Below are positions 12,467 through 59,347 of a DNA stretch of 64,000 nucleotides, in pieces. Below the pieces are notes generated by a model, which was given only the letters and a program-made list of their open reading frames with translations, was not told the DNA's origin and made no database searches. The number at the start of each line of letters is the position of its first letter. The first letter of the stretch is position 1. Source of the DNA: Perna viridis (lineage: Eukaryota). The stretch covers positions 45,115,195 through 45,179,194 of the forward strand of contig CM074513.1 of NCBI GenBank assembly GCA_037379345.1. The letters run 5' to 3'. The translations under genes and the position numbers were made by a program.

Positions 12467-12990
12467 TTTGTTTTTGTTTGTTGTTTGTTGGGGTTTAACG
12501 TCCGAGCAGCAATATTTCAGCTATATTCAGACGATGTACATGAAATGGATGATAAAATGAACATTAAATGATGATGAAATGAAAAAAGGGATGGGACACA
12601 AGGATAATGGGGTCGACAAATTTTGATTGCCACTGGAAATAGGGAGAAGTGGGTAGGGTCGGGCAATTTAGTCTCCTGTGGCAGAGCCCTATGGTTCCTA
12701 CTCCGGGAGAATACCACAGTAGGGTTCTTTAACGTGTGAGGAACGTGGCATCTTTCCCAACACGGTGCACCACTATGGTTTGCGGTCAGGTTTTCCGTAT
12801 TATAGCCTGACAACCCCAGCATGTAACACACCAGGGGTACCCCATTCCACCACCTGGGGCACACAACCCAGTTGCTCTGTGGGCAGAGCGCCCTAGCCCC
12901 CGGCTAAGGTTCTGAGCACTATTTAGTCGCCTTTTACGACAAGCTTATTGCTGCAGGCCTATTCTTTTGACACCCGGACCTGCACAGGGC
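12467..12990 (-). mobile_element. Complete SINE-like non-autonomous retroelement (copy 2)
   Basis: 12-bp TSD CAAAACTTTGTA (12455-12466 and 12991-13002). Same 5' start (GCCCYGTGCAGGTCCGGG) and tail as copy 1, colinear along the full length. Confidence 0.92.
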
Positions 12991-13830
12991 CAAAACTTTG
13001 TAAGTTGGTAGACAGTTTGTAATGGTAAACACTTAACACTGAGATATAAAACTGTAATGTTATTCTTTATCAATGAATGTGAACGATCTTACTATTCTAC
13101 TGCATGTGGGAAAAAGCCGACTTAGGAAAACTTTAAATGACTCAATTATTACATTGTACAACATTTAAATGAATAATCATCTAATGAAACACTTCAATAA
13201 CCTGTCCAATATAGTATCAAAGTAACTTTCATGTTAAGTGTGAAATCTTAATATTATTCAATTTAATAGATAAGCCGCTTATCTTTCCATTTGTAGCTTT
13301 TAGCTGTCCCAGTGATAATATTGATACTTCCTTTTTAAATTATGGGAATTAACGTATATTGAGGAAAATACATTAAAAACTAATTTACATATTTTCTTAT
13401 GTAGGCATGTAATTAAGTTCGGTTTTATCTAAAAGTAATATTACGCGACTGAAAATAGTACACGTGACTTAACAATATAGACTCAAATAAAACGAAAGAT
13501 CAAATGTTGTCTTTTATCTAAGTTCTTGGTTTAATGTGTTCAATTGTCTTCCGAATGGAAGTTTAATTTCCCACACATATTCAATATATTATAACAATGT
13601 AAAGTGTGAAAAAGTTCTTTGGTGAACAAGTTATGCACTTTATCTGTATTTATAGAACTATGCTTTAATAGTTCTTATCATATTTTTTTTTATTTCATCC
13701 TTCCAGTTGTATTTCACTTAATCATATTTTGCACCTGTCAAGTACCGTAAATTTTATTTTATCGTATGAGTTTATATTATTCACATACTCTTACTAAGAG
13801 TGCATGATCATTTACTGGTATTGTAAATGC

Positions 13831-14305
13831 CATCAACTTCAGTAAATGACATACCTCGTCTGTTATTTGAGTATCATCAACCTCAGTAAAAGACATATCT
13901 CGTCTGTAATTTGAGTATCATCAACCTCGGTTAAAGACATATCTAGTCTGTAATTTGAGTAGCATCAACCTTAGTAAAAGACATATCACGTCTGTAATGT
14001 GAATATCATCAAACTCAGTAAAAGACATATCTTTTCTGTAATTTGGGTATCATCAACCTCAGTAAAAGACATATCTCGTCTGTAATTTGAGTAGCATCAA
14101 CCTCAGTTAAAGACATATCTCGCCTGTAATTTGAGTATCATCAACCTCGGTTAAAGACATATCTCGTCTGTAATTTGAGTATCACCAACCTCAGTTAAAA
14201 CATATCTAGTCTGTAATTTGAGTAGTATCAACCTCAGTAAAAGACATATTTTTTCTGTAATTTGAATGTCATCAACCTCAGTTAAAGACATACCTCGTCT
14301 ATAAT
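13831..14305. repeat. 44-bp minisatellite, ~11 copies
   Basis: Unit CATCAACCTCAGTAAAAGACATATCTCGTCTGTAATTTGAGTAT, head-to-tail with no spacers (starts at 13831, 13875 ... 14270). Confidence 0.95.
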
Positions 14306-15555
14306 CTAAATTTCTTATTCAAATGATTAATGTTTGTTTCATGGCCTTTTTTATTACCTTATTTTGTTTTTTCCTCGATCGTTGATAGTTGTATATTATA
14401 TATGTTTTTACCTTGCTTGTCTTTATTCTAATGAATCATCATTTTGAGTTAATAGAAAACATAGATTAATTCCTTGAAGATTTTGTATTGTGATATTAAC
14501 ACGATATTAGAAAATGGTTTAATGACGATGTGAATGAAAATGATCATATATCTGACTTTCTCTAAATCGTCACAATCTCAATACATTCAAAAATACATTG
14601 TTAAGCCATAACTCTGTCAGGTAATTCAATTAGATGATTGTCCACCATGAATACATTTCCAAGTCCGGTACGTATAGGTCCACAGGCGTAACAAATTCTC
14701 ATAGCAAATAGCTGTAGCAGTCAGGAATTTCAATTATTATTGGGAAAACAACACAAAGGTACATATTTTTCTATCCAATTAGTTGTTTATTTTTTACTTA
14801 AATAACTCGATCTTTGGGCGAAGGAGGAAAACGTCATGCCTAAGAAAACTTGTAACGCTACATAGAAAATGTTACATAATATCAGCCTATTATAAAGTAA
14901 TCTGCTGTAGATTAATGGTTCTAGTCATCTTGTAGAACCCAAAGTATTTATTTTTGTTATAATGTGCACCAGTCTGTTGACAAACACACCATTCATGCTT
15001 TATATACCGTATTCTTTTTTTTCAGTTATATACGTAAGTGTGTTTTACAACTTACGCTGTTCCTTGTGCATATTAGTATAGAACCTTATTTCATTTATAT
15101 AAAGTAAAGCTAACTGATGATTAACATTTGTTTCTTAAGGGTTTAAACTTAATATCAGTAATTTGATTTTCATATTTCCTCTGGTTATTATACCATCAAA
15201 CAATCAAGGGAATTGTTGTAGAAGGTTGTATCCAAACTCCAAACAAACTTCAGTTAAGACTTATCAGGTTTTAAGTCTATCTGATTTTCTCGATGCCCAA
15301 AGTAGAAGCAAATCGTTCTCCATGACGTTTGCTTCGAACTTTATTCGCATTAAAGAGATAAGAATTCAGGAAACAGCGATGCTGTGTCCAATACATTATG
15401 ATTGACATGAATAAGATGAACCTTACTTTAAATACGTAAACACGTGCAGATATTGGAGTACATAGATGAAAGTTATCACCTTTGATTTATTTTGTTTTTT
15501 GTTTTGCGAATTGCACTTTGTCTGATGCCTTTATGTCCCGTTTTCCAAACTTCAC

Positions 15556-15801: not shown

Positions 15802-17256
15802 TCCTGTGTTTTGCTTCATAGTATTGCTTTTATTTCGTTTCAAAATTCTACAGTTACCATTATGCTTTTTGACGATCGAAATGGCCTTTTGTTTCCCCTA
15901 GTGATCACAAATTTACTTTATTTTAGAAAAATGTCGGAAATTTTTAGAAATACGGAGGGCACCCAGACTTCCCAGCATGTGAGGTACAAGTTTTTCGGTC
16001 TATGCTTTATTTACATCGTTTCTATTCTTTTCTATTCTTTAAATAGTCTTTGTTTCTTGACTTGTTATCTCTCTTATCGTAGCTACTTTTGTTTTTACCT
16101 CCACTGATTTTTATTAGTGCATTCAATTTATACAGAAGAGTGTCTTCAAGGATTCCTCATTTATTAATATGAACAATTTTGTCTGTTACAAAACTTGTTT
16201 TATTCAGTGAAATGTTTATTGTCTTGTTAAATTCACATTGTCATTTATTTTCAAATTTGTACGAAACGCCGAAACGTGTTTAAATCAAATCTAGTCATAA
16301 AATGCAAAATAAATATTGATATAGATAAATAAATACACAATGAAATGGATTCTTTGCAATACAATGTTTTTTTCACTCCTAAGCATGTATCAGACAGGTA
16401 AAAACCCTGGACAAATTACGAAAAAGACCAAAGTTCAACTCAGCAACCGTAACATCGTTCGAAATATTCAGGTCATCTGTGAAAAATGGCTAACCAAACA
16501 ATCCTGCTAAGTTAATGTTCGATCTACTGAGATTAACTTGAGGTGATCAACATGCCCATTGATCACTTCAGCGATGAAATAGTTTGCTTCTTTTCAAATA
16601 TTATTGATCATCGAAGTTTTAGATATATGTATCAACTTATAAACAAATTTTTATCACAATCGTCATCTCTCCCAAGGTTACAATTGGCATGACAAGAACT
16701 ATTTGTGTGTGTTTTTGTACAATGTGAGAAACGTCTAATGTATGTTAGTAAGGTTTCCCTAAATTGTTCAGACAAAAGCTCATCTGATATAAAACATCTG
16801 AATCCTTAATTCAGATGAAACACGTTGGCTATTGTCTTCTTATTTTCTATAATTTGTTTTTATTCTTTCTAAATTCTTCATTTGGTTTCCTTTAAATCTA
16901 TGTCATTGTCAATATCTTCCTTAACTTTGAATAGTGCGTCTTTATTTTTATCTTTATCTTACACAAGCTTTACATTAAGCTTGTACTATAGGAACACTAT
17001 ATGTATGCTTCCACGGTGTGTTTGAATATTCTTATACATTTTTATGTCATTTTATGTGTTTTATTTCGAAGCTTTATTTTTTTTATCTACTTTTATTCAT
17101 AGTTTTATCATTACCAAGTCCTCAAAGGAAATCGTGTGGCAGAAAAAAATATTTGGTTTGTTTTTAATAGGCAGTTAAGTTTTAAATATATATGAAAATA
17201 ATTCACAAAAAAATCACTGTCTCTACTGGTAAAGAGACAAAAGAGATAAAAACGAA

Positions 17257-17930
17257 AGAGTAATCAAGTGTACCAAGATTCTAGCGGAAATCAAAAGAAT
17301 GTAATCCAGGTACAAAGACCAGACATGGAAAACAGACACTCACAACAAAGAACATACTATAACCAAAATGATACATACAGAGTAACAAATGTAAATAGTA
17401 AATACGCAAATCGTACTTCACTAAAAACTGGAAACACGAACAAGATGCACCAGTGGGATAAGCGTCCTCTGTATTTCTAGAAACACCCTCAGAGCTGTTC
17501 ATAAAAAGTCAAGTACAGGGTAGACGAAAGATGACTTCAATCTTGTAACAACATAACCCTGTTCCAGAAGCCTAATTATTAGAATTCTAGCGCGATACAA
17601 AAAGTCTGCGTAGTTACGGCAAACTGTTGCAAAACGTACAAATTGTGATAAGAAAACTCTATACGCAGATGCTGAAGGGATATTGCCACACATAAAAGGT
17701 AAGTTGACAATACGGAATAAAAAGTCATCGCGTTTGTTGTACAACTTGGTCAATAGTCTTCCTTTCCCATCGATCTCTCATTGTAGGCCAAGATATGAGG
17801 CTGATTTCACAGGAACTGTAATATTCTTTATCTTAAGTTCTTTGGGGGTCGATGCTATGTATTAAATCCGCGAAAATAGAATTGTTTAACGATAATACGT
17901 CATCTATACAGCGGAAACTGAGATTAATAA
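17257..17930 (-). mobile_element. Penelope-like (Naiad-type) fragment: RT YIDD-to-thumb region plus 3' UTR, with deletions
   Basis: Minus-strand ORF 17499-17753 TKLYNKRDDFLFRIVNLPFMCGNIPSASAYRVFLSQFVRFA. YIDD-coding sequence near 17900. Shared 3' terminus at 17257. Confidence 0.85.
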
Positions 17931-35403: not shown

Positions 35404-36404
35404 TTCGACATTATTTTAAAGCATTGATATAAATTTATTCAGCACATTGGTACTTTGATTCTAACTGTTTACCGACTGCTGGCGTTGATGATATTTATTT
35501 CTGATAGCATGGAAGTGTAAGCTTATTGTCGAATAGCATTTGTAAGAAGACTGTTTCAGGCTTATAGGGGTAGTTTGTAATATACTTCATAGAAAGCGTG
35601 TAGAATTTAAATAATGGTACACGTGCAAGAACTGCTAGCACAATAAATAATTTGAAACAATGTTAAAACAAAAAGATATAAAAAATGAACAGAACAATAA
35701 TCTATAGAATGGAAGTTAACATCATCGTTTTCTGGTTCAAAACAAAAAGGACGAAATAAGGTAAAAATTCAACGTACCTCTGAAAATTCATTAAAAACAA
35801 CCAAACTTTTAGTTTCTGTTTGTATCTAAGCTTGTTCTGTAGGCACACAAAAGTGTAAATTCATGATAAAATTTCCATATCATTTGATTCTTGACTCAAT
35901 GAATCATTTTCAATTTCCAAGACTCATTTTGGTGCAAAGTACAAACTCTCAAGGCATTACATTGCTAATGTAGTTAAACATGGAGAACTATTGAGTGGAG
36001 GTTTACATAATCTGCAAGGAATTGGTTTTAAATTTTAGCCAATTTAACTACTTAAAAGCTAGACATATTTTAGACCAGTCTTTGAAAATTACTTTTATCT
36101 GAAATGTTGTCTTATTTATAGGTAAATTTTAAAACATCAACGTCCACTTTGTTTGGATTAAGAAAACATTAACGGTTGAGTCTGCGTGTGTTTCTTTTTA
36201 ATTTTGAAAAGAAAACCAGATTTCGATTGATTCAAAAGTATTTTGAACGATGGATGTTTATAAAGGGAGCCATTCCTATAGCGTATAACACGAAGAAAGA
36301 CTATCAGAAGACGTAAAGCTCCAATCGATTTTGTCTGTATAAGACGCACTCCTATTTTGCCACAAGTATGTATACCGGCTTCCCTCACTATCAGGCTAGG
36401 ATTT

Positions 36405-36429
36405 AATCTTTCTTTTTCTTACTTTTCAG
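36405..36429 (+). promoter_or_regulatory. Splice acceptor (polypyrimidine tract + CAG) of the GPCR main exon
   Basis: TCTTTCTTTTTCTTACTTTTCAG|GCTGACGAAATG. The exon would start at 36430, 9 nt before the ATG. Confidence 0.8.
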
Positions 36430-36438
36430 GCTGACGAA

Positions 36439-37668
36439 ATGGAATTATCAAATATTTCACAACATAATGACCTTTCTCTTACGTCAACAACCCCTTCAAC
36501 AACCTCCATCAACATAACCGTTAATGAAAACGTGTATTATGCAAAGTATTTACCGGAAAAAGAATTTGTCGGCAAGTATGTCACACTCTTCACGTACACA
36601 ATTGGGTTTCCTGGAAATGTGTTCGCGTTATTAATATGGCTGCAGAACAAAATGAGAAATTCTTCCGGTTATTATCTCGCAGCATTAGCATTTTCAGACT
36701 TTTTATTTCTAACTCTTCAAGTATTTCATGAACTAAATGACACATGGAAAATAAGCGTGTTAGATCATAAGTTCATATGTGAGGTCTTTCCGGTAATATT
36801 CTTGTCTACGCAGTTTCTCTCTCCTTTGTTGGTTCTAGCATTCACTGTCGAGAGATATATATCCATATGTCATCCATTCAAGAGAGAAAAGTTTTGTACT
36901 ACAAAAAGGGCGAGAATAGTGATTGCATGTCTTGCTGCGTTGTGCTTTTGTATGAATCTTATTCAAGGATATTTTTATACGTATAATTCTGTAGTGTGCA
37001 CCGCCCGTAAAGAAGCATTACCTGTGTGGGTAATTTGGACCTGGTTTTCAGAGGCTGTTGTATTCATGCTAGTGCCACTTATGATCTTATTTTTCAATGT
37101 GCTTGTCATACATGAAGCAAGGAGATTAGCAAAGTTTGAAAAGCACCAACTGAAATCCCACGCAAAATCTCATGGTAATGCTACGACGGTGATGTTGATA
37201 GCTGTTTCCTTTTACCATATTTTTACTACTTTCCCTGTGACAATTGCCGTAGCTATGTTCGTTTCATACTCTGTAGAGCCGAGTGACACAACTATGTTAG
37301 TCAACAGTACAGTGCCTTATATTCAAAATAACTCTACTGTTAATCTAATAGATGCATCAGCTTTGCCCAAAAAGTGGTCAAGTCATTTCCAATACGTGTT
37401 AGTGAGAAGTATCATAGAAGAAATTGGACTCACTCACTATGCTTTTAATTTTTATATTTACTTGATAACGGGTAAGAATTTTCGAGAAGAATTTTGCAAG
37501 ATGTTTTTTAAACGTGATGACAGATATAAGTCTTCGTGGAATACAGAATACACAACTGTAAGAACAGAACCCGGTGATGGTAATATAACAGTGCGTATGA
37601 TAAATGGTCAAGCAAATGGTCATAGCGATAATAAAAAGCTCCACAATGACTCCGAAACTCCTCTTTGA
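36439..37668 (+). CDS. Class A (rhodopsin-like) GPCR, FMRFamide/sex-peptide-receptor-like peptide receptor group, 409 aa, all 7 TM in one exon
   Basis: Seven hydrophobic segments. TM1 GFPGN, TM2 LAALAFSD, Cys at top of TM3 (FICEV), FTVERYISICHPF (E/DRY), TM5 LVP, TM6 TTFP, TM7 NFYIY. N-terminal N-glycosylation sequons. The ligand cannot be assigned from sequence. Confidence 0.95.
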   Translation: MELSNISQHNDLSLTSTTPSTTSINITVNENVYYAKYLPEKEFVGKYVTLFTYTIGFPGNVFALLIWLQNKMRNSSGYYLAALAFSDFLFLTLQVFHELNDTWKISVLDHKFICEVFPVIFLSTQFLSPLLVLAFTVERYISICHPFKREKFCTTKRARIVIACLAALCFCMNLIQGYFYTYNSVVCTARKEALPVWVIWTWFSEAVVFMLVPLMILFFNVLVIHEARRLAKFEKHQLKSHAKSHGNATTVMLIAVSFYHIFTTFPVTIAVAMFVSYSVEPSDTTMLVNSTVPYIQNNSTVNLIDASALPKKWSSHFQYVLVRSIIEEIGLTHYAFNFYIYLITGKNFREEFCKMFFKRDDRYKSSWNTEYTTVRTEPGDGNITVRMINGQANGHSDNKKLHNDSETPL

Positions 37669-38681: not shown

Positions 38682-38903
38682 GGAGGGTCTGAAAAATTCC
38701 CAACGATGTTAGAACTGTCAAATTTGCGAAGCAAATCTTTGTCGTTCCCTCCGCGGGACTCGAACTCGTACCGCTGTGACATCTATGGCAACACCGCCTG
38801 CACTAAGTACAGCGCTCTGCTATAAGTTTGCGTTATCTTCCCTGTATCAATTTGATCCGATGGAGCAGTGTAGAAAATAGAGTCGTCACATTCTGAGACG
38901 TTG
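38682..38903 (-). mobile_element. tRNA-cassette element, internally deleted copy flanked by (TA)n on both sides
   Basis: Homologous to 44850-45090 in reverse. B box retained (GGGACTCGAACTC); A box deleted at ~38818. (TA)n at ~38670-38681 and 38904-38923. Confidence 0.85.
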
Positions 38904-38923
38904 TATATATATATATATATATA

Positions 38924-40299
38924 CAGTCTCGGGTCAAAAGTATTTCTGCAATATGGCCGACGTCATTCAACGTCATTTACTTTATACCACTAAATAAATC
39001 AATAAAAGGGCATTTTAAAGACAAAATAAATGAGATACTAACTTTAATATTTTGTTATTGCACCATTGGCTCTCAATACACGACGAATTCTAGTTGGAAT
39101 AGAATTATATAATGTCCTTATATAGACTGGTTCAATGTCCATCCACACACGTTTAGACTCCCTGATCAAGTCCTCCTTCGTTTTGATCCTGTGCACCACC
39201 TTCTGTAACCGGATTTTAATGTACCTCCAAACATTCTCAATAATGTTGATATCTGGGCTTTGCGCAGGCCACACCATTCCTTCGATATCATTGTCTGCCT
39301 TCCATCGAATCGTGTGTCTAGATCGGTGGGGGGTAGCATTGTCATCTTGGAAGATCCACCTCCCTGTCGGAAAAGTTTTAGCCACAACTGGCCAAAGATG
39401 TTCATCCAGAATGTCTGTATATTTCTGTGAATTAATTGTCCCATTCACTGGTACAAAAGTTCCAACACCGTCAAATGTTACACATCCCCAAAACATAACA
39501 CTCACAACGGGACCGGCTGTGTCGTCACCCTTCTCTCCAAGGCAAGAATTAAACCACTTTTCATCGTCTCTCCGCCAAATATGAACTTTGCTATGCTTTC
39601 CTATACATATTTGAGTCTCATCAGAGAAAATTATATTCTTCCAGTATTTGTTCACAGTCATATGAAGCTTTGATCGACACCAAGCCCTCCTTTTGAACCT
39701 GTTTCCATCACTGATCACAATTTTCTTCTTCACAACTCGTTTTTTGAATCCATAAAACTTAAGCCTCCTCTTAACAGTTGATTCACTTATCTTAACTGGT
39801 GTTCTCTCATTCAAAAGGTTAGTAACATCCTTTAAGTTCTTTCTACGCTCCGTTTTCACAATCCGTAGCAACTGCCTGTCCGTCCTGGTGTCACATTTTC
39901 TGGGTCGACCACTTCGTGTCCTGTTTTCTTCATTTTCACGGATCCGATAACGTTTTAAAAACTTTTGAACTGTAGAGGGATTCAAACCCAACATCTGAGC
40001 GATTTTTCGTCCACTATGTCCATCTTCATCTAATTTTACAATGCATTTTTTCGTATCAACACTCATCTCTTTTCCTCTCGGTGCCATTTTTTAGCAGACG
40101 ACAAGTAAACAAAAGAGAGACAACTCTATGCATCCCTTCAATTTCCAGAAAATACTCTATAAATAGACCTTTTAAAAAACCAAATCTATTTTCACTTTGT
40201 TACAGGTCATGACAAAAATATCGGCATTTGGTTCACGCACCTGTCGGGCACGGATAACGTCGGCCGCCATTGTGCGGAAATACTTATGACCCGAGACTG
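38924..40299 (-). mobile_element. Full-length Tc1 DNA transposon, 1376 bp
   Basis: TIRs CAGTCTCGGGTCAAAAGTATTTCTGCA and reverse complement CAGTCTCGGGTCATAAGTATTTCCGCA (25/27). TA TSD at 38922-38923 and 40300-40301. Single intact transposase ORF. Confidence 0.97.
39044..40087 (-). CDS. Tc1-family transposase, DD34E, 347 aa
   Basis: N-terminal HTH (SGRKIAQMLGLNPSTV), GRPR linker, second HTH (ISESTVKRRL). Catalytic motifs IFSDE, FQDDNA and SPDINIIE, with 34 residues between the second D and the E. Confidence 0.97.
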   Translation of the reverse strand: MAPRGKEMSVDTKKCIVKLDEDGHSGRKIAQMLGLNPSTVQKFLKRYRIRENEENRTRSGRPRKCDTRTDRQLLRIVKTERRKNLKDVTNLLNERTPVKISESTVKRRLKFYGFKKRVVKKKIVISDGNRFKRRAWCRSKLHMTVNKYWKNIIFSDETQICIGKHSKVHIWRRDDEKWFNSCLGEKGDDTAGPVVSVMFWGCVTFDGVGTFVPVNGTINSQKYTDILDEHLWPVVAKTFPTGRWIFQDDNATPHRSRHTIRWKADNDIEGMVWPAQSPDINIIENVWRYIKIRLQKVVHRIKTKEDLIRESKRVWMDIEPVYIRTLYNSIPTRIRRVLRANGAITKY

Positions 40300-44624: not shown

Positions 44625-45640
44625 TAGACCATGTATGCTATTGTCATTCCCTGGCGTCCGTCGTCGTCATCGTCTGTCGAACTACTAAATGAATTTAGAT
44701 CAAACTTTGGATGATTGTTTCTAAGTGTATTCTAGGATTATCCTACATAGAGTCCATGTTTCGATTTTTTGATCCGTCGAAAAACATGGCTGTCGTTACT
44801 AAAAATAGAGCATAGGGGTCAGACAGCAGTTTATAAAATCAATATTATACAACGTTTCAGAATGTGACGACGTTATTCGTTACACTGCTCCATCAAATCC
44901 TATGAGGAGGAATGACCCGGCCAGCGAAAGCTATATTTTTAGATAGCCTAGCTGCCCGAGTGGTCTAGGGCGCTGGACTTAGTGCAGGCGGTGTTGCCAT
45001 AGATGTTACAGCGGTATGAGTTCGAGTCCCGTGGAGGGAACGACCAAAAATTTGACAGTTCTAACATCGTTGGGAATTTTTCAGACCCTTTTATATATAT
45101 ATATATATATATATGAAGAGATTTATCTGTGGTCAAATTTTGGTAAAAATCTGTTGAGGCATGATGGATTTATTGACCTTATTGACAATTTTGGTGTCAT
45201 TATGTCAAAAATCTTCCTCTCTGAAACTACTATTCAGAATCCAATGAAACTTGGTAAGTTAATTTCTTAGGGTATTCTGCACAAACTGATTGTTTTAATT
45301 TTTGAAACGTTGAAAACATGACCGCTTTTACAAAGGGGTAAAAAATTGCAGATAACCCAAAGCCTTTGAATTTAAAAAAAAAAACTGATTAGGGTTATAT
45401 TGTTCATCAGAAGACGGATTTTATGCCGAAATTTTCAAAATGATTTGTCGCCCGATGTAGGAGTTAGTGCCCCTGAAACATATTTTTTTTTGTCATTCAC
45501 ATGTACAACTTTGAAAATCTTCTCTGAAACCATACATTTGGCATAATTTTAGGGTATCTTGCACAAACGAATGATTTTAAATTTTCATCGGTTGAAAAAA
45601 AATGGCCGTCGTTACTTAAAATATATCTTCCTGAACTATA
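44625..45640 (+). mobile_element. Decayed Helentron-associated (HINE-like) element, interrupted by the tRNA-cassette element
   Basis: GCTATTGTCATTCCCTGGCGTCCGTCGTCGTC head and AAAAACATGGCTGTCGTTACTAAAAATAGAGCATAGGGGTCAGACAG body are shared with 48615-49242. Confidence 0.65.
44850..45090 (+). mobile_element. tRNA-cassette element, best-preserved Pol III cassette, followed by (TA)n
   Basis: Terminus CAACGTTTCAGAATGTGACGAC. tRNA-like unit from ~44946 with A box TGCCCGAGTGG and B box GTTCGAGTCCC. T5 run at ~45077-45081. Ends TCAGACCCTTT(TA)n. Confidence 0.85.
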
Positions 45641-55244: not shown

Positions 55245-56390
55245 GTTATTGATATTGGGGTTTATAGCCTAACCGTTTTCAAATAAGAAACCTAAAAGGG
55301 CCATAAAAAGCATTTGTTAGAATTCAACTTCAGAACTCCAGTACAAGCATAGGAATGTCTGTGATATTGTTTCTTAATATTCTATACAATGGTCAGACTT
55401 GGATAGATTTTGGGGATAAAGATTTGAACAGAAATTAGGGGCCAGAAACATGCATTTTCTTGATGCCCAAACAATATCTTGACTATTAGGGAATGAATCT
55501 CTTTGAAATTGTATTTCAAGGTGATATACATGTACAATGTACCACCAAATGAAGAGTGGGATTGATTTTTGGGGTTTAGACTTGAATCTTGTAGGATAAA
55601 GGGGCCTGAAATAATCATTTCCTTATTTCTGAATATTAACTTCGGCTCCTGCGTATGGAGTGTTCATATCACAACTCATACGTTATAAGCTTGCCGAAAC
55701 TACGCAGACTTTTTGTATCGCGCTAGAACTCTAACAAATAGGCTTCTGGAACAGGGTTATGTTGCTACAAGATTGAAGTCATCACTACAGAAATTTTATG
55801 GTCGTCATCATGAACTCGTGGATCGTAATGGTGTATCCATAAGCACCATGAAAACTGATTTATTCAACGGGTCATAGTTTTTCTTTCCTTGTTTGTCTAC
55901 CCCGGACTTGACTTTTTATGAGCAACCGAGCGGGTGTTTCTAGAAAAGCAGAGGACGCTACCCTACCGGTGCACCTGGTCCATGCTCCCAGTTTTTAGTT
56001 GAGTCCGAGTTGCTCATTTACTTTTGTTACTTGTATGTATGATTTAAGTTACTTTATGTTCTTTGTTGTGTATGTCTGTTTTCCATGTCTGGTCTTTGTC
56101 CCTGCATCACATTCTTTTGATTACCGCTATAACCTTGGTTTTACTACAAGGTGTCATACCAAGAGTAAAGACTGGGATTGATTTTTGTTGTTGTGACTTG
56201 CGCCAAGTAAGAATAAGGGGTCACAACTAGGCCATGAAAAAAAAGTATTTTTTTATGATTTATGGACAATAACTCTAGTGAAAGGAAATGGATCACTTTG
56301 AAATTGTACCTCAAGGTGCCATTTTCCTCAGGAAGTTGGGATTAATTTTTACAGGGTTTTACTGGAACCATTTTGGAATAATTGCAAAAA
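55245..56390. repeat. Decayed tandem array of Helentron-type units, split by a Penelope-like insertion
   Basis: CTTTGAAATTGTA..CAAGGTG and TGGGATTRATTTTT recur at ~55500-55570, ~56147-56187 and ~56295-56350. Confidence 0.5.
55641..56140 (+). mobile_element. Penelope-like (Naiad-type) fragment: RT C-terminus plus 3' UTR
   Basis: SAPAYGVFISQLIRY..CRNYADFLYRARTLTNRLLEQGYVATRLKSSLQKFYGRHHELVDRNGVSISTMKTDLFNGS*, then the conserved UTR. Confidence 0.88.
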
Positions 56391-57452: not shown

Positions 57453-57886
57453 TCGCTAGAATTCTAACAAATAGGCTTCTGGAGCAATGTTATGTTGCTA
57501 CAAGACTGAAGTCATCACTACAAACGTTTTATGGTCGTCATTATGAACTCGTGGATCGTTATGGTGTATCCATTTGCACCATGAAAACTGATTTATTCAA
57601 CGGGTCGTAGTTTTTCTTTCATCGTTTGTCTACTCCGGACTTGACTTTTTATGAGCAACTCCACGGGTGTTTCTGGAAAAGCAGAGGACGCTTATCCTAC
57701 CGATGTACCTGGTACATGCTCCCAGTTTTTAGTTGAGTCCGAGTTGCTCATTTGCTTTTGTTACTTTGTATGTATGATTTTAGTTACTTAATGTTATTTG
57801 TTGTGTATGTCTGTTTTCCATGTCTGGTCTTTGTTCCTGGATTGCATTCTTTTGATTACCGGTTTAACATTGGTTCCCTTGATTAC
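57453..57886 (+). mobile_element. Penelope-like (Naiad-type) fragment: ORF end plus 3' UTR
   Basis: Closely similar to 55720-56140; ends TTGGTTCCCTTGATTAC. Confidence 0.88.
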
Positions 57887-58629
57887 GCTTTTACTTATTA
57901 TAATGTTGACACACTCACAACCTAATATTAAGTTTCTTTTGTTGTTTTTTTTTGTTTTTGCTTTTTTTAAGCTATCCAATATATATTTATACTTGTTCAG
58001 ACCATTAAGTCATTCAATGCTTTAAAACTTTTGTCATAACTCCATAACACAAAGCTACCATTTACCATTCATCAAAACTGTGGCGAAGTTTCATTCTCGT
58101 ACAAAATCAGTTTTCAACGATTTTATTGGCACCAAAACTTTGCATGTATTGTTAGCATTCGTCACAATTTCTAATTTGGATAATTATCATCGATTTAGAT
58201 ATTACGTGTATTAAAACCGTTTATACTTTTGACAATTATGAATATTTCTCAAAATCAATAAATTCTTGCAATTTGTCTACAAAACAAAGTATATAGTTGT
58301 ATAGGAGAAACGCAGAATATTTTGAGTATCAAAAGTACATAGTATATTTAAAAATCTCAATTTATTTTCATTTAATTAGATACATACCAAACTCAAATTT
58401 TCAAAAATCTAATCAAATACTACTCTGTGTATTTTAAGTGAAAAAAAATTGTTTTAACGATCTTTGGTAAAGATATTGATCTTTACCTTTATACAGTAAA
58501 GAATTTCAACATTAAAATATGTATAAAACGTTATTTGTATACCTCTACATATATTAAAACCAATAGGATTAGATATAAGTATATATATAGGTTTTGCTAT
58601 CAGTGTATACCTCGAGGATTTGTCATAAG

Positions 58630-59270
58630 TATAGATGACGTATTATCTTTAAACAATCCTAATTTCGGGGATTTGATATATCGCATCTACCCCAAAGAAC
58701 ATGAGATAAGGGATACTACAGACACTGTAAAGTCAGCCTCATATCTTGACATTCACTTAGAAATCGATGTTAAAGGAAAACTATTGACCAAACTTTACAA
58801 CAAACGTGATGACTTTTCATTCAGATTTGTCAACTTTCCTTTCATCTGTGGCAACATCTCTTCAGCACCTGCATATGGGGTGTTCATATCACAACTTATA
58901 CGTTATGCCAGAGCTTGCCGAAACTACGCTACAACTCAACCAAATAGGCTTCTGGGACAGGGTTATGTTGCTACAAGATTGAAGTCATCACTACAGAAGT
59001 TTAATGGTCTTCATCATGAACTTGTGGATCGTTATGGTGTATCCATCTGCACCATGAAAACTGATTTATTCAACGGGTCATAGTCTTCCTTTCCTCGTTT
59101 GTCTACCCCGGACTTGACTTTTTATGAGCAACCGAGCGGGTGTTTCTAGAAAAGCAGAGGATGCTTACCCTACCGGTGCACCTGGTACATGCTCCCAATT
59201 TTTAGTGGCCCGAGTTGCTCATTAACTTTTGTTACTTTGTATGTATGATTTTAGTTACTTAATGTTATTT
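58630..59270 (+). mobile_element. Penelope-like (Naiad-type) 5'-truncated copy: RT from IDD to stop (59083) plus 3' UTR
   Basis: ORF-track peptide IDDVLSLNNPNFGDLIYRIYPKE..SASYLDIHLEID..LYNKRDDFSFRFVNFPF..AYGVFISQLIRYARAC..DLFNGS*. No endonuclease follows RT. Confidence 0.9.
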
Positions 59271-59272
59271 GT

Positions 59273-59347
59273 AATTTGCGATGCAAAGTTGACAATTCTA
59301 ACATCGTTGGGAATTTTTCAGACCTTTCTATATATATATATATATAT
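59273..59347 (+). mobile_element. 3' end of the tRNA-cassette element plus (TA)n
   Basis: AATTTGCGATGCAAAGTTGACAATTCTAACATCGTTGGGAATTTTTCAGACC followed by (TA)n; matches 45049-45113. Confidence 0.8.

Follow-up and report, generated by a model that had tools for sequence, protein, structure and literature searches.

The window, by which we mean the whole 64,000-nt stretch of DNA analysed (on contig C3 of a 723-Mb genome of 46 contigs), has a G+C content of 32%, is rich in repeats and contains four pieces of one repeat family. The basis of this family is a 410-nt head-to-tail unit, read from tandem copies, that consists of a tail (positions 1-83), an upstream body (84-253), a tRNA-like stretch (about 254-337) and a unit end at position 410. 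The main copy has two arms. Its inverted arm (44836..44894, minus strand; unit 40-98, 93% identity to the family consensus) comprises most of the tail and extends 13 nt beyond the tail end. Its forward arm (44896..45090, plus strand; unit 203-410, 91%) is 5'-truncated, stops at the unit end and lacks a 13-nt piece lying between two short direct repeats. The forward arm carries the tRNA-Leu(TAG)-derived stretch (44947..45030, plus strand), in which a D arm, an anticodon arm, a long variable region and a T loop can be recognized; the A box (44953-44963) is here one base off the family consensus, and the B box (45019-45029) lies in the T loop, both on the plus strand. A hairpin predicted by folding the consensus (44916..44962, plus strand) pairs upstream unit sequence with the start of the tRNA-like stretch and holds a T5 run (44936-44940) in its loop. 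The segment 45077..45090 (plus strand) comprises a T5 run, an AGAC motif and the first 3' end (unit position 410), and a (TA)n run, to which no strand applies, lies at the 3' end of the copy (45093..45114). This run is the target, possibly lengthened at insertion. As the earlier note had read from this copy, element sequence is present upstream of the A box, and a T5 run (45077-45081) lies about 130 nt after the start of the tRNA-like stretch.

The related copies that had been noticed near 5.7-6.2 kb and 38.7-38.9 kb do belong to the family. The second copy consists of an inverted arm (38684..38818, minus strand; unit 274-409, 97%) and a forward arm (38820..38903, plus strand; 97%) that covers the whole tail up to a second 3' end, with a TA run outside each arm. 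The third copy is older; its inverted arm (5724..6029, minus strand; unit 30-358, 74%, with a weak match extending to about 5703) is followed by a forward arm (6035..6155, plus strand; unit 364-410 and then the tail, 83-87%) that spans a tandem junction. The fourth piece (59273..59327, plus strand; unit 356-410 plus a TA run) abuts, with no TA in between, a truncated member of an abundant repeat, family Z. The suggestion that the copies have the sequence upstream of the A box in common holds for the 44.8-kb copy and not for the 38.7-kb copy, which has nothing upstream in the tRNA orientation; besides the tRNA half, these two copies share the tail.

Other features of the window are a 422-aa frame of a rhodopsin-family GPCR (36400-37665, plus strand; 7tm_1, E 1e-24), a 348-aa frame of a Tc1/mariner-type transposase (39047-40090, minus strand; DDE_3 and HTH_Tnp_Tc3_2), a tandem array with a 44-nt period (13774-14344), and an inverted pair of another abundant repeat, probably a SINE (10072-10542 and 12472-12954, about 2 kb apart). 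The tail of this probable SINE also contacts unit copies in loci L004, L017 and L030.

An exact 23-mer of the unit end gave 3,623 matches in the genome, and its reversed control gave none. Searching with the window copy yielded 45 matches from the best 40 scored of 1,714 candidates, and nearly all retrieved loci had the sequence matching query bases 1-53 inverted relative to the remainder. This and all other search sets consist of top-scoring matches and are therefore biased to long, young copies. The tandem arrays that the earlier note had recommended searching for exist: two unit ends are spaced one unit apart in 311 cases genome-wide, two adjacent pairs with three ends occur among the first 100 of the 311 listed spacings, and arrays of 2.3 and 2.7 units occur. 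Long copies have a median identity of 94% to one reference copy. The full units (65) fall into two linked subfamilies, with 26 and 8 pure members and the remainder being mixed or partly unscored. Every unit has conserved T5 runs at positions 243 and 397, and the unit contains no reading frame.

By sequence comparison, the tRNA half, i.e., the 3' half of the unit, is derived from the tRNA-Leu(TAG) of the same genome. Host tRNA-Leu genes were located with a sequence pattern and identified with ARAGORN; the first pattern returned unit copies only and was dropped. Alignment to tRNA-Leu(TAG) scored 71 for the consensus and 67.5 for the window copy, each beating 2000 of 2000 shuffles, with control tRNAs scoring 45 (Thr) and 43.5 (Lys/Met) against the unit. 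The match covers the D arm, the anticodon arm and the T loop. Relative to the tRNA, the unit has a lengthened variable region and has lost the 3' acceptor strand. The tRNA structure is broken in the predicted fold, with upstream sequence pairing with the tRNA start; the A and B boxes are intact in the family consensus. ARAGORN and Rfam made no call of a tRNA or a ribozyme on the unit or the window copy, and a weak Rfam match to RAGATH-12 (E 0.85-1.8, far under the cut-off) was treated as chance. The host tRNA genes themselves occur as long arrays in which identical copies follow one another in tandem (Lys/Met, Leu-TAG, Leu-AAG, Leu-CAG and one unnamed), located on C6 (28.99-29.01 and 6.66-6.78 Mb), C7 (14.45-14.54 Mb) and C8 (20.32-20.36 and 24.30-24.36 Mb).

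The ends of the copies were examined in 72 clusters away from locus edges, after three duplicate loci had been dropped. Outer 3' ends fall at unit positions 404-410 or 75-100 in 80 of 102 cases (counted from the cluster list), which defines two fixed 3' ends 84 nt apart, whereas the 5' ends are scattered, as in random 5' truncation. A TA run follows 64 of the 102 3' ends, as compared with 9 of 42 5' ends. Among 200 deduplicated clusters, the arm order was inverted-then-forward in 67, plain forward-then-inverted in none, a single orientation in 120 and complex in 13. An inverted second arm is frequent; both 3' ends point outward, and either 3' end can be on either side. The 5'-5' junctions between arms contain TA in only 1 of 88 cases and mostly show an overlap of a few bases, while 3'-3' contacts contain TA in 19 of 24 cases and are read as nested insertions. 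What had been taken for a left and a right terminus are thus both 3' ends of the 410-nt tandem unit, facing outward, and the supposed interior deletions are really places where a forward arm meets an inverted one. The TA runs that had been claimed for both sides are present only in the 38.7-kb copy; the 44.8-kb copy lacks one on its left, the TA-looking letters at 44836-44850 being unit positions 84-98.

Direct repeats flanking the insertions (at least 9 nt with at least 2 G/C) were found in 1 of 156 clusters, a test to which TA-only duplications are invisible. A search for empty sites among paralogous repeats in the retrieved loci gave nine candidates for the 156 clusters, none of them informative. 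Runs of (TA)n of at least 12 nt are rare, there being six in the 380 kb of 38 random 10-kb stretches (L031-L050 and L223-L240). As two or three of these six touch the unit, elements of this type may be the source of a considerable part of the genome's TA microsatellites. The subfamilies were mixed at 0 of 69 tandem junctions and at 3 of 36 scored inverted junctions (of 88 in all; p 0.04), the latter fraction being far below the 45% expected for independent arms. These figures suggest that the arms of one insertion usually share a single template and occasionally have two.

Open frames located next to unit copies led to PLEs. Family X (L111:830-4109, minus strand; copies in L082-L110) is a TA-targeting PLE with more than 1,000 candidates and an 843-aa open frame in one copy. 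This frame encodes an RT followed by a CX2-5CxxC linker and, at the C terminus, a GIY-YIG domain (E 3e-4, just under the cut-off), a domain order, taken from PMC8557442, by which the family was assigned as a putative Neptune/Nematis-type element. Family Y (L123:2256-3345 and L124:3919-6770; copies in L132-L160; 1,027 candidates) is a second TA-targeting PLE, about 68% identical to X in DNA; the end sequences of the two are clearly homologous, none of 1000 shuffles being as good. In both families two different ends lie on (TA)n and the arm geometry is that of the unit, and the spacing of the two ends and their AGAC motifs is 83 nt in X, 88 nt in Y and 84 nt in the unit. A small hairpin in the tail is common to X and Y and has a compensatory-looking counterpart, judged by eye, in the unit. 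No third family close to X or Y was found in the roughly 250 retrieved loci. A further PLE group with a C-terminal GIY-YIG domain (L221, L222 and L020) has a hammerhead-like motif in its 3' UTR and was seen near three unit flanks.

The RT-bearing family Z (window 55636-56160, 57454-57890, 58629-59272, 17255-17909 and others), which is putatively Naiad-like by its protein motif, is very abundant, with about ten times as many candidates (12,250) as X or Y and copies in 29 of the 38 random 10-kb stretches. It was rejected as a helper because its fixed 3' end does not lie on TA and the unit is near only 2 of 29 of its loci. For comparison, 14 of 29 copies of X and 14 of 29 copies of Y have a unit copy within 1.5 kb (Fisher p 0.0008), and 2 of the 38 random stretches contain one. 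As TA runs are so rare (6 in 380 kb, 2 of them beside the unit), this co-location can follow from the shared target alone, and most contacts of the unit with X and Y run through TA and reflect only that target. Junctions free of TA were found with X (three), Y (eight) and Z (three), X and Y loci being enriched by selection; two of them are 5'-5' pairs of a unit arm and an X arm, overlapping by 2-3 bases. The ends of the unit bear a weak likeness to those of X and Y: in global alignment 8 and 22 of 1000 shuffles, respectively, were as good, in local alignment 240 and 162, and with the tails alone 65 and 75 (neither of the last two comparisons being significant). The unit body has no homology to the 5' or 3' regions of X or Y. 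All three are of similar age, with median identities of 94-96% to their reference copies. The partner enzyme, which the earlier note had left open, is in this way narrowed to two coding PLE families as candidates; their identity as helpers is moderately supported, and their proteins probably mobilise the unit.

With regard to the RNA template, the first position is 245 or later in 42 of 52 upstream partial units, which is what a start at the tRNA head would produce; the earlier note had offered the option that a 3' promoter drives the next tandem copy. Several observations speak against regarding this as settled: an exponential decay and a step placed where the tRNA begins fit the 52 5' ends comparably well (2dLL 0.4-0.9, bootstrap p 0.04), so that a 5' cliff at that point is not supported; 10 of the 52 run past the tRNA head; each unit has two T5 runs; and arrays of 2.3 and 2.7 units occur. 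In one ordinary RNA-seq run, 3,102 reads of 10.35 million records fell on the unit, in both directions and across the unit junction, with no sharp RNA start or end. Their depth was flat in one direction and halved over the upstream body in the other. The reads represent transcription of family sequence, perhaps passive, and those across the junction are indistinguishable from genomic tandems. A hammerhead core was absent from either strand of a unit dimer, using a descriptor of the minimal hammerhead (a concept treated in the accessible part of PMC4209133) that finds the core in X, within the pLTR, and in Y; Rfam is uninformative here in that it also misses X and Y. Hammerhead and HDV-like readings of the unit's hairpins were both discarded as the core order is not present (by descriptor and by eye, respectively).

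According to the accessible parts of PMC8557442, PLE insertions consist of partial tandems cut short at the 5' end, preceded on the 5' side by a truncated copy in inverted orientation, and have an optional tail at one end, and the CX2-5CxxC finger is linked to (TA)n targets. The portions of PMC11167929 at hand describe a PLE protein that cleaves and extends both strands of AT-rich DNA, starts cDNA at two internal RNA sites bounding the tail, and can dispense with the hammerhead in vitro. Partial tandems, an inverted 5'-truncated arm and an optional tail are all found in the unit, which places it with PLE-like elements, and a PLE-type mode of insertion is well supported. The two 3' ends and outward-facing arms can be explained by two-strand cutting and two RT starts as known for PLEs (PMC8557442, PMC11167929). 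Most likely, with a probability of about 0.7, the family is a gene-less, tRNA-Leu-derived tandem element that inserts into (TA)n and is copied in trans by the RT-endonuclease of a Neptune/Nematis-type PLE of the same genome. Extrapolating from the biochemistry in those portions of PMC11167929, the PLE protein would bind an RNA longer than one unit, nick both strands of TA-rich DNA, and begin cDNA synthesis within the RNA, at one or the other of two positions immediately 3' of an AGAC motif. One start would yield a simple truncated copy, whereas two starts would yield two arms connected at their 5' ends through microhomology, in most cases copied from a single template and in some from two. By analogy with Sm-alpha, a Pol III transcript might be started by an upstream unit's A and B boxes and read through the T5 runs into the next units, a step we propose tentatively and at slightly less than even odds.

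The template of the same type of insertion could also be a circle of RNA, one unit long, that is reverse-transcribed in a rolling manner, as has been proposed for retrozymes, the tRNA part then being a processing aid or a relic and not the start. Such a circle would account for the lack of a fixed 5' limit among the 52 upstream ends, for the multi-unit arrays and three-end pairs, and for tandem units that never mix subfamilies, and the unit is similar in size to mussel retrozymes (350-390 bp in the available text of PMC7229834). However, without a hammerhead core on either strand there is no known way for the RNA to be cut and circularised, genomic tandems explain the junction reads equally well, and the tRNA fold is broken; we consider this origin unlikely. 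Alternatively, the helper might be a different, unsampled PLE family, with X and Y sharing only the target. The weak likeness of the unit ends to X and Y, the group with a C-terminal EN and a hammerhead-like 3' UTR near three unit flanks, and a screen that covered only the retrieved loci (about 250) are in keeping with this, whereas the finding of no third family close to X or Y in those loci, the matching end spacing and AGAC motif, the TA-free junctions with both families and the similar ages argue against it, and we judge it quite improbable. A broader conception of these elements is that of ribozyme-free "SINEs of Penelope", in which a tRNA-Leu piece would have replaced the pLTR promoter and the hammerhead, Neptune-type PLE proteins would copy the RNA in trans, and host tRNA-processing enzymes would possibly make a circular 410-nt RNA; the unit would then share little with PLE RNA beyond the AGAC motif, its spacing and the small hairpin. 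Taken as a whole, this conception is speculative and probably not correct.

Two more conventional readings fare worse. If the element were an ordinary LINE-dependent SINE captured in a longer repeat or tandem, with inversions produced by twin priming, the clear tRNA-Leu origin, the intact A and B boxes, the random 5' truncation and the simple-repeat 3' side would be natural. Yet only 3 of 30 copies picked by their tRNA half have their start no more than 15 nt from the head, 297 matches include no SINE with this head standing on its own (nor do the 12 of 12 pattern matches that were read), possible target duplications amount to 1 in 156, and both arms use the two fixed 3' ends and overlap in sequence. 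This very improbable reading is already largely refuted, in agreement with the view expressed at the outset that the element is not a conventional SINE. The outer ends of two-arm copies look conserved and are flanked by TA, as they would be in a non-autonomous DNA transposon without terminal inverted repeats that carries a small-RNA gene. But 120 of the 200 clusters have a single orientation and scattered 5' ends, the "left end" belongs to the interior of a tandem unit and is inverted, either 3' end can lie on either side, and most copies do not have fixed termini; we give this reading hardly any chance. Of the two options offered earlier, a DNA-type element with a small-RNA cargo is thus not supported, and a permuted, pLTR-like retro-unit was the right one as to architecture.

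The preferred reading, that of a gene-less PLE-type element copied in trans, bears on how such elements are mobilised and annotated. SINEs are generally considered to depend on LINEs for their mobility. Published PLE passengers have a hammerhead or the 3' end of their parent. The present case rests on a full PLE insertion signature, thousands of copies that are 90-97% alike, and two candidate helpers in the same genome. If true, the combination of helper and unit would allow three questions to be addressed with a 410-nt RNA: whether PLE proteins act in trans, which features mark the two internal RT start sites, and whether the hammerhead is dispensable in vivo. Arm pairs of mixed subfamilies, or of unit and X, suggest that one insertion can use two RNAs, which fits the dimer model as presented in the accessible part of PMC11167929. 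In repeat annotation, elements of this kind would be wrongly classed as SINEs or unknown DNA elements.

Members of SINE2 have tRNA-derived A and B boxes and no coding capacity. The unit differs from them in that its tRNA part is in the 3' half, its copies start elsewhere and lack target duplications, and no LINE-like tail was found. Its nearest precedent is Sm-alpha/Sj-alpha of schistosomes, described in the accessible text of PMC6765202 and PMC2770079 as tRNA-derived, tandem and SINE-like, the processed unit bearing a Pol III promoter at its 3' end and an upstream copy transcribing the next. However, Sm-alpha has a hammerhead and arose from tRNA-Gln, whereas the unit arose from tRNA-Leu and lacks a hammerhead core, and a PLE partner, a tail and inverted arms are not described for Sm-alpha in those parts of the two papers. 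Animal non-LTR retrozymes, proposed to be non-autonomous PLE passengers (PMC7229834; bioRxiv 10.64898/2026.07.22.740005, both as far as their available text goes), are likewise short, non-coding tandem units of similar size; they carry a type I hammerhead per repeat and are related to the pLTR, neither of which applies to the unit, and the same text describes no tRNA part.

Neptune/Nematis and Naiad PLEs, as characterised in the portions of the literature at hand, share with the unit the partial tandems, the inverted 5'-truncated arm, the optional tail and the AT-rich or (TA)n target. The unit differs from them in having no reading frame and no hammerhead, a tail of 84 nt as compared with the 30-40 nt published for PLEs, and tRNA-type boxes instead of the Pol II promoter of the pLTR. 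Non-autonomous Chlamys elements of green algae such as MRC1 (the accessible part of PMC8557442) resemble it in being non-coding, pLTR-forming, multicopy and head-to-tail, within a ribozyme-free clade, although their 3' end generally resembles that of the autonomous family, whereas the likeness is weak here, and a tRNA part is unreported for them in that part of the paper. Full-text literature searches gave no account of the family, nor of a tRNA-derived PLE passenger that lacks a ribozyme; Repbase, Dfam, subscription journals or supplements may contain one. By these comparisons, the unit belongs neither to SINE2 nor to the retrozymes and behaves as a non-autonomous PLE.
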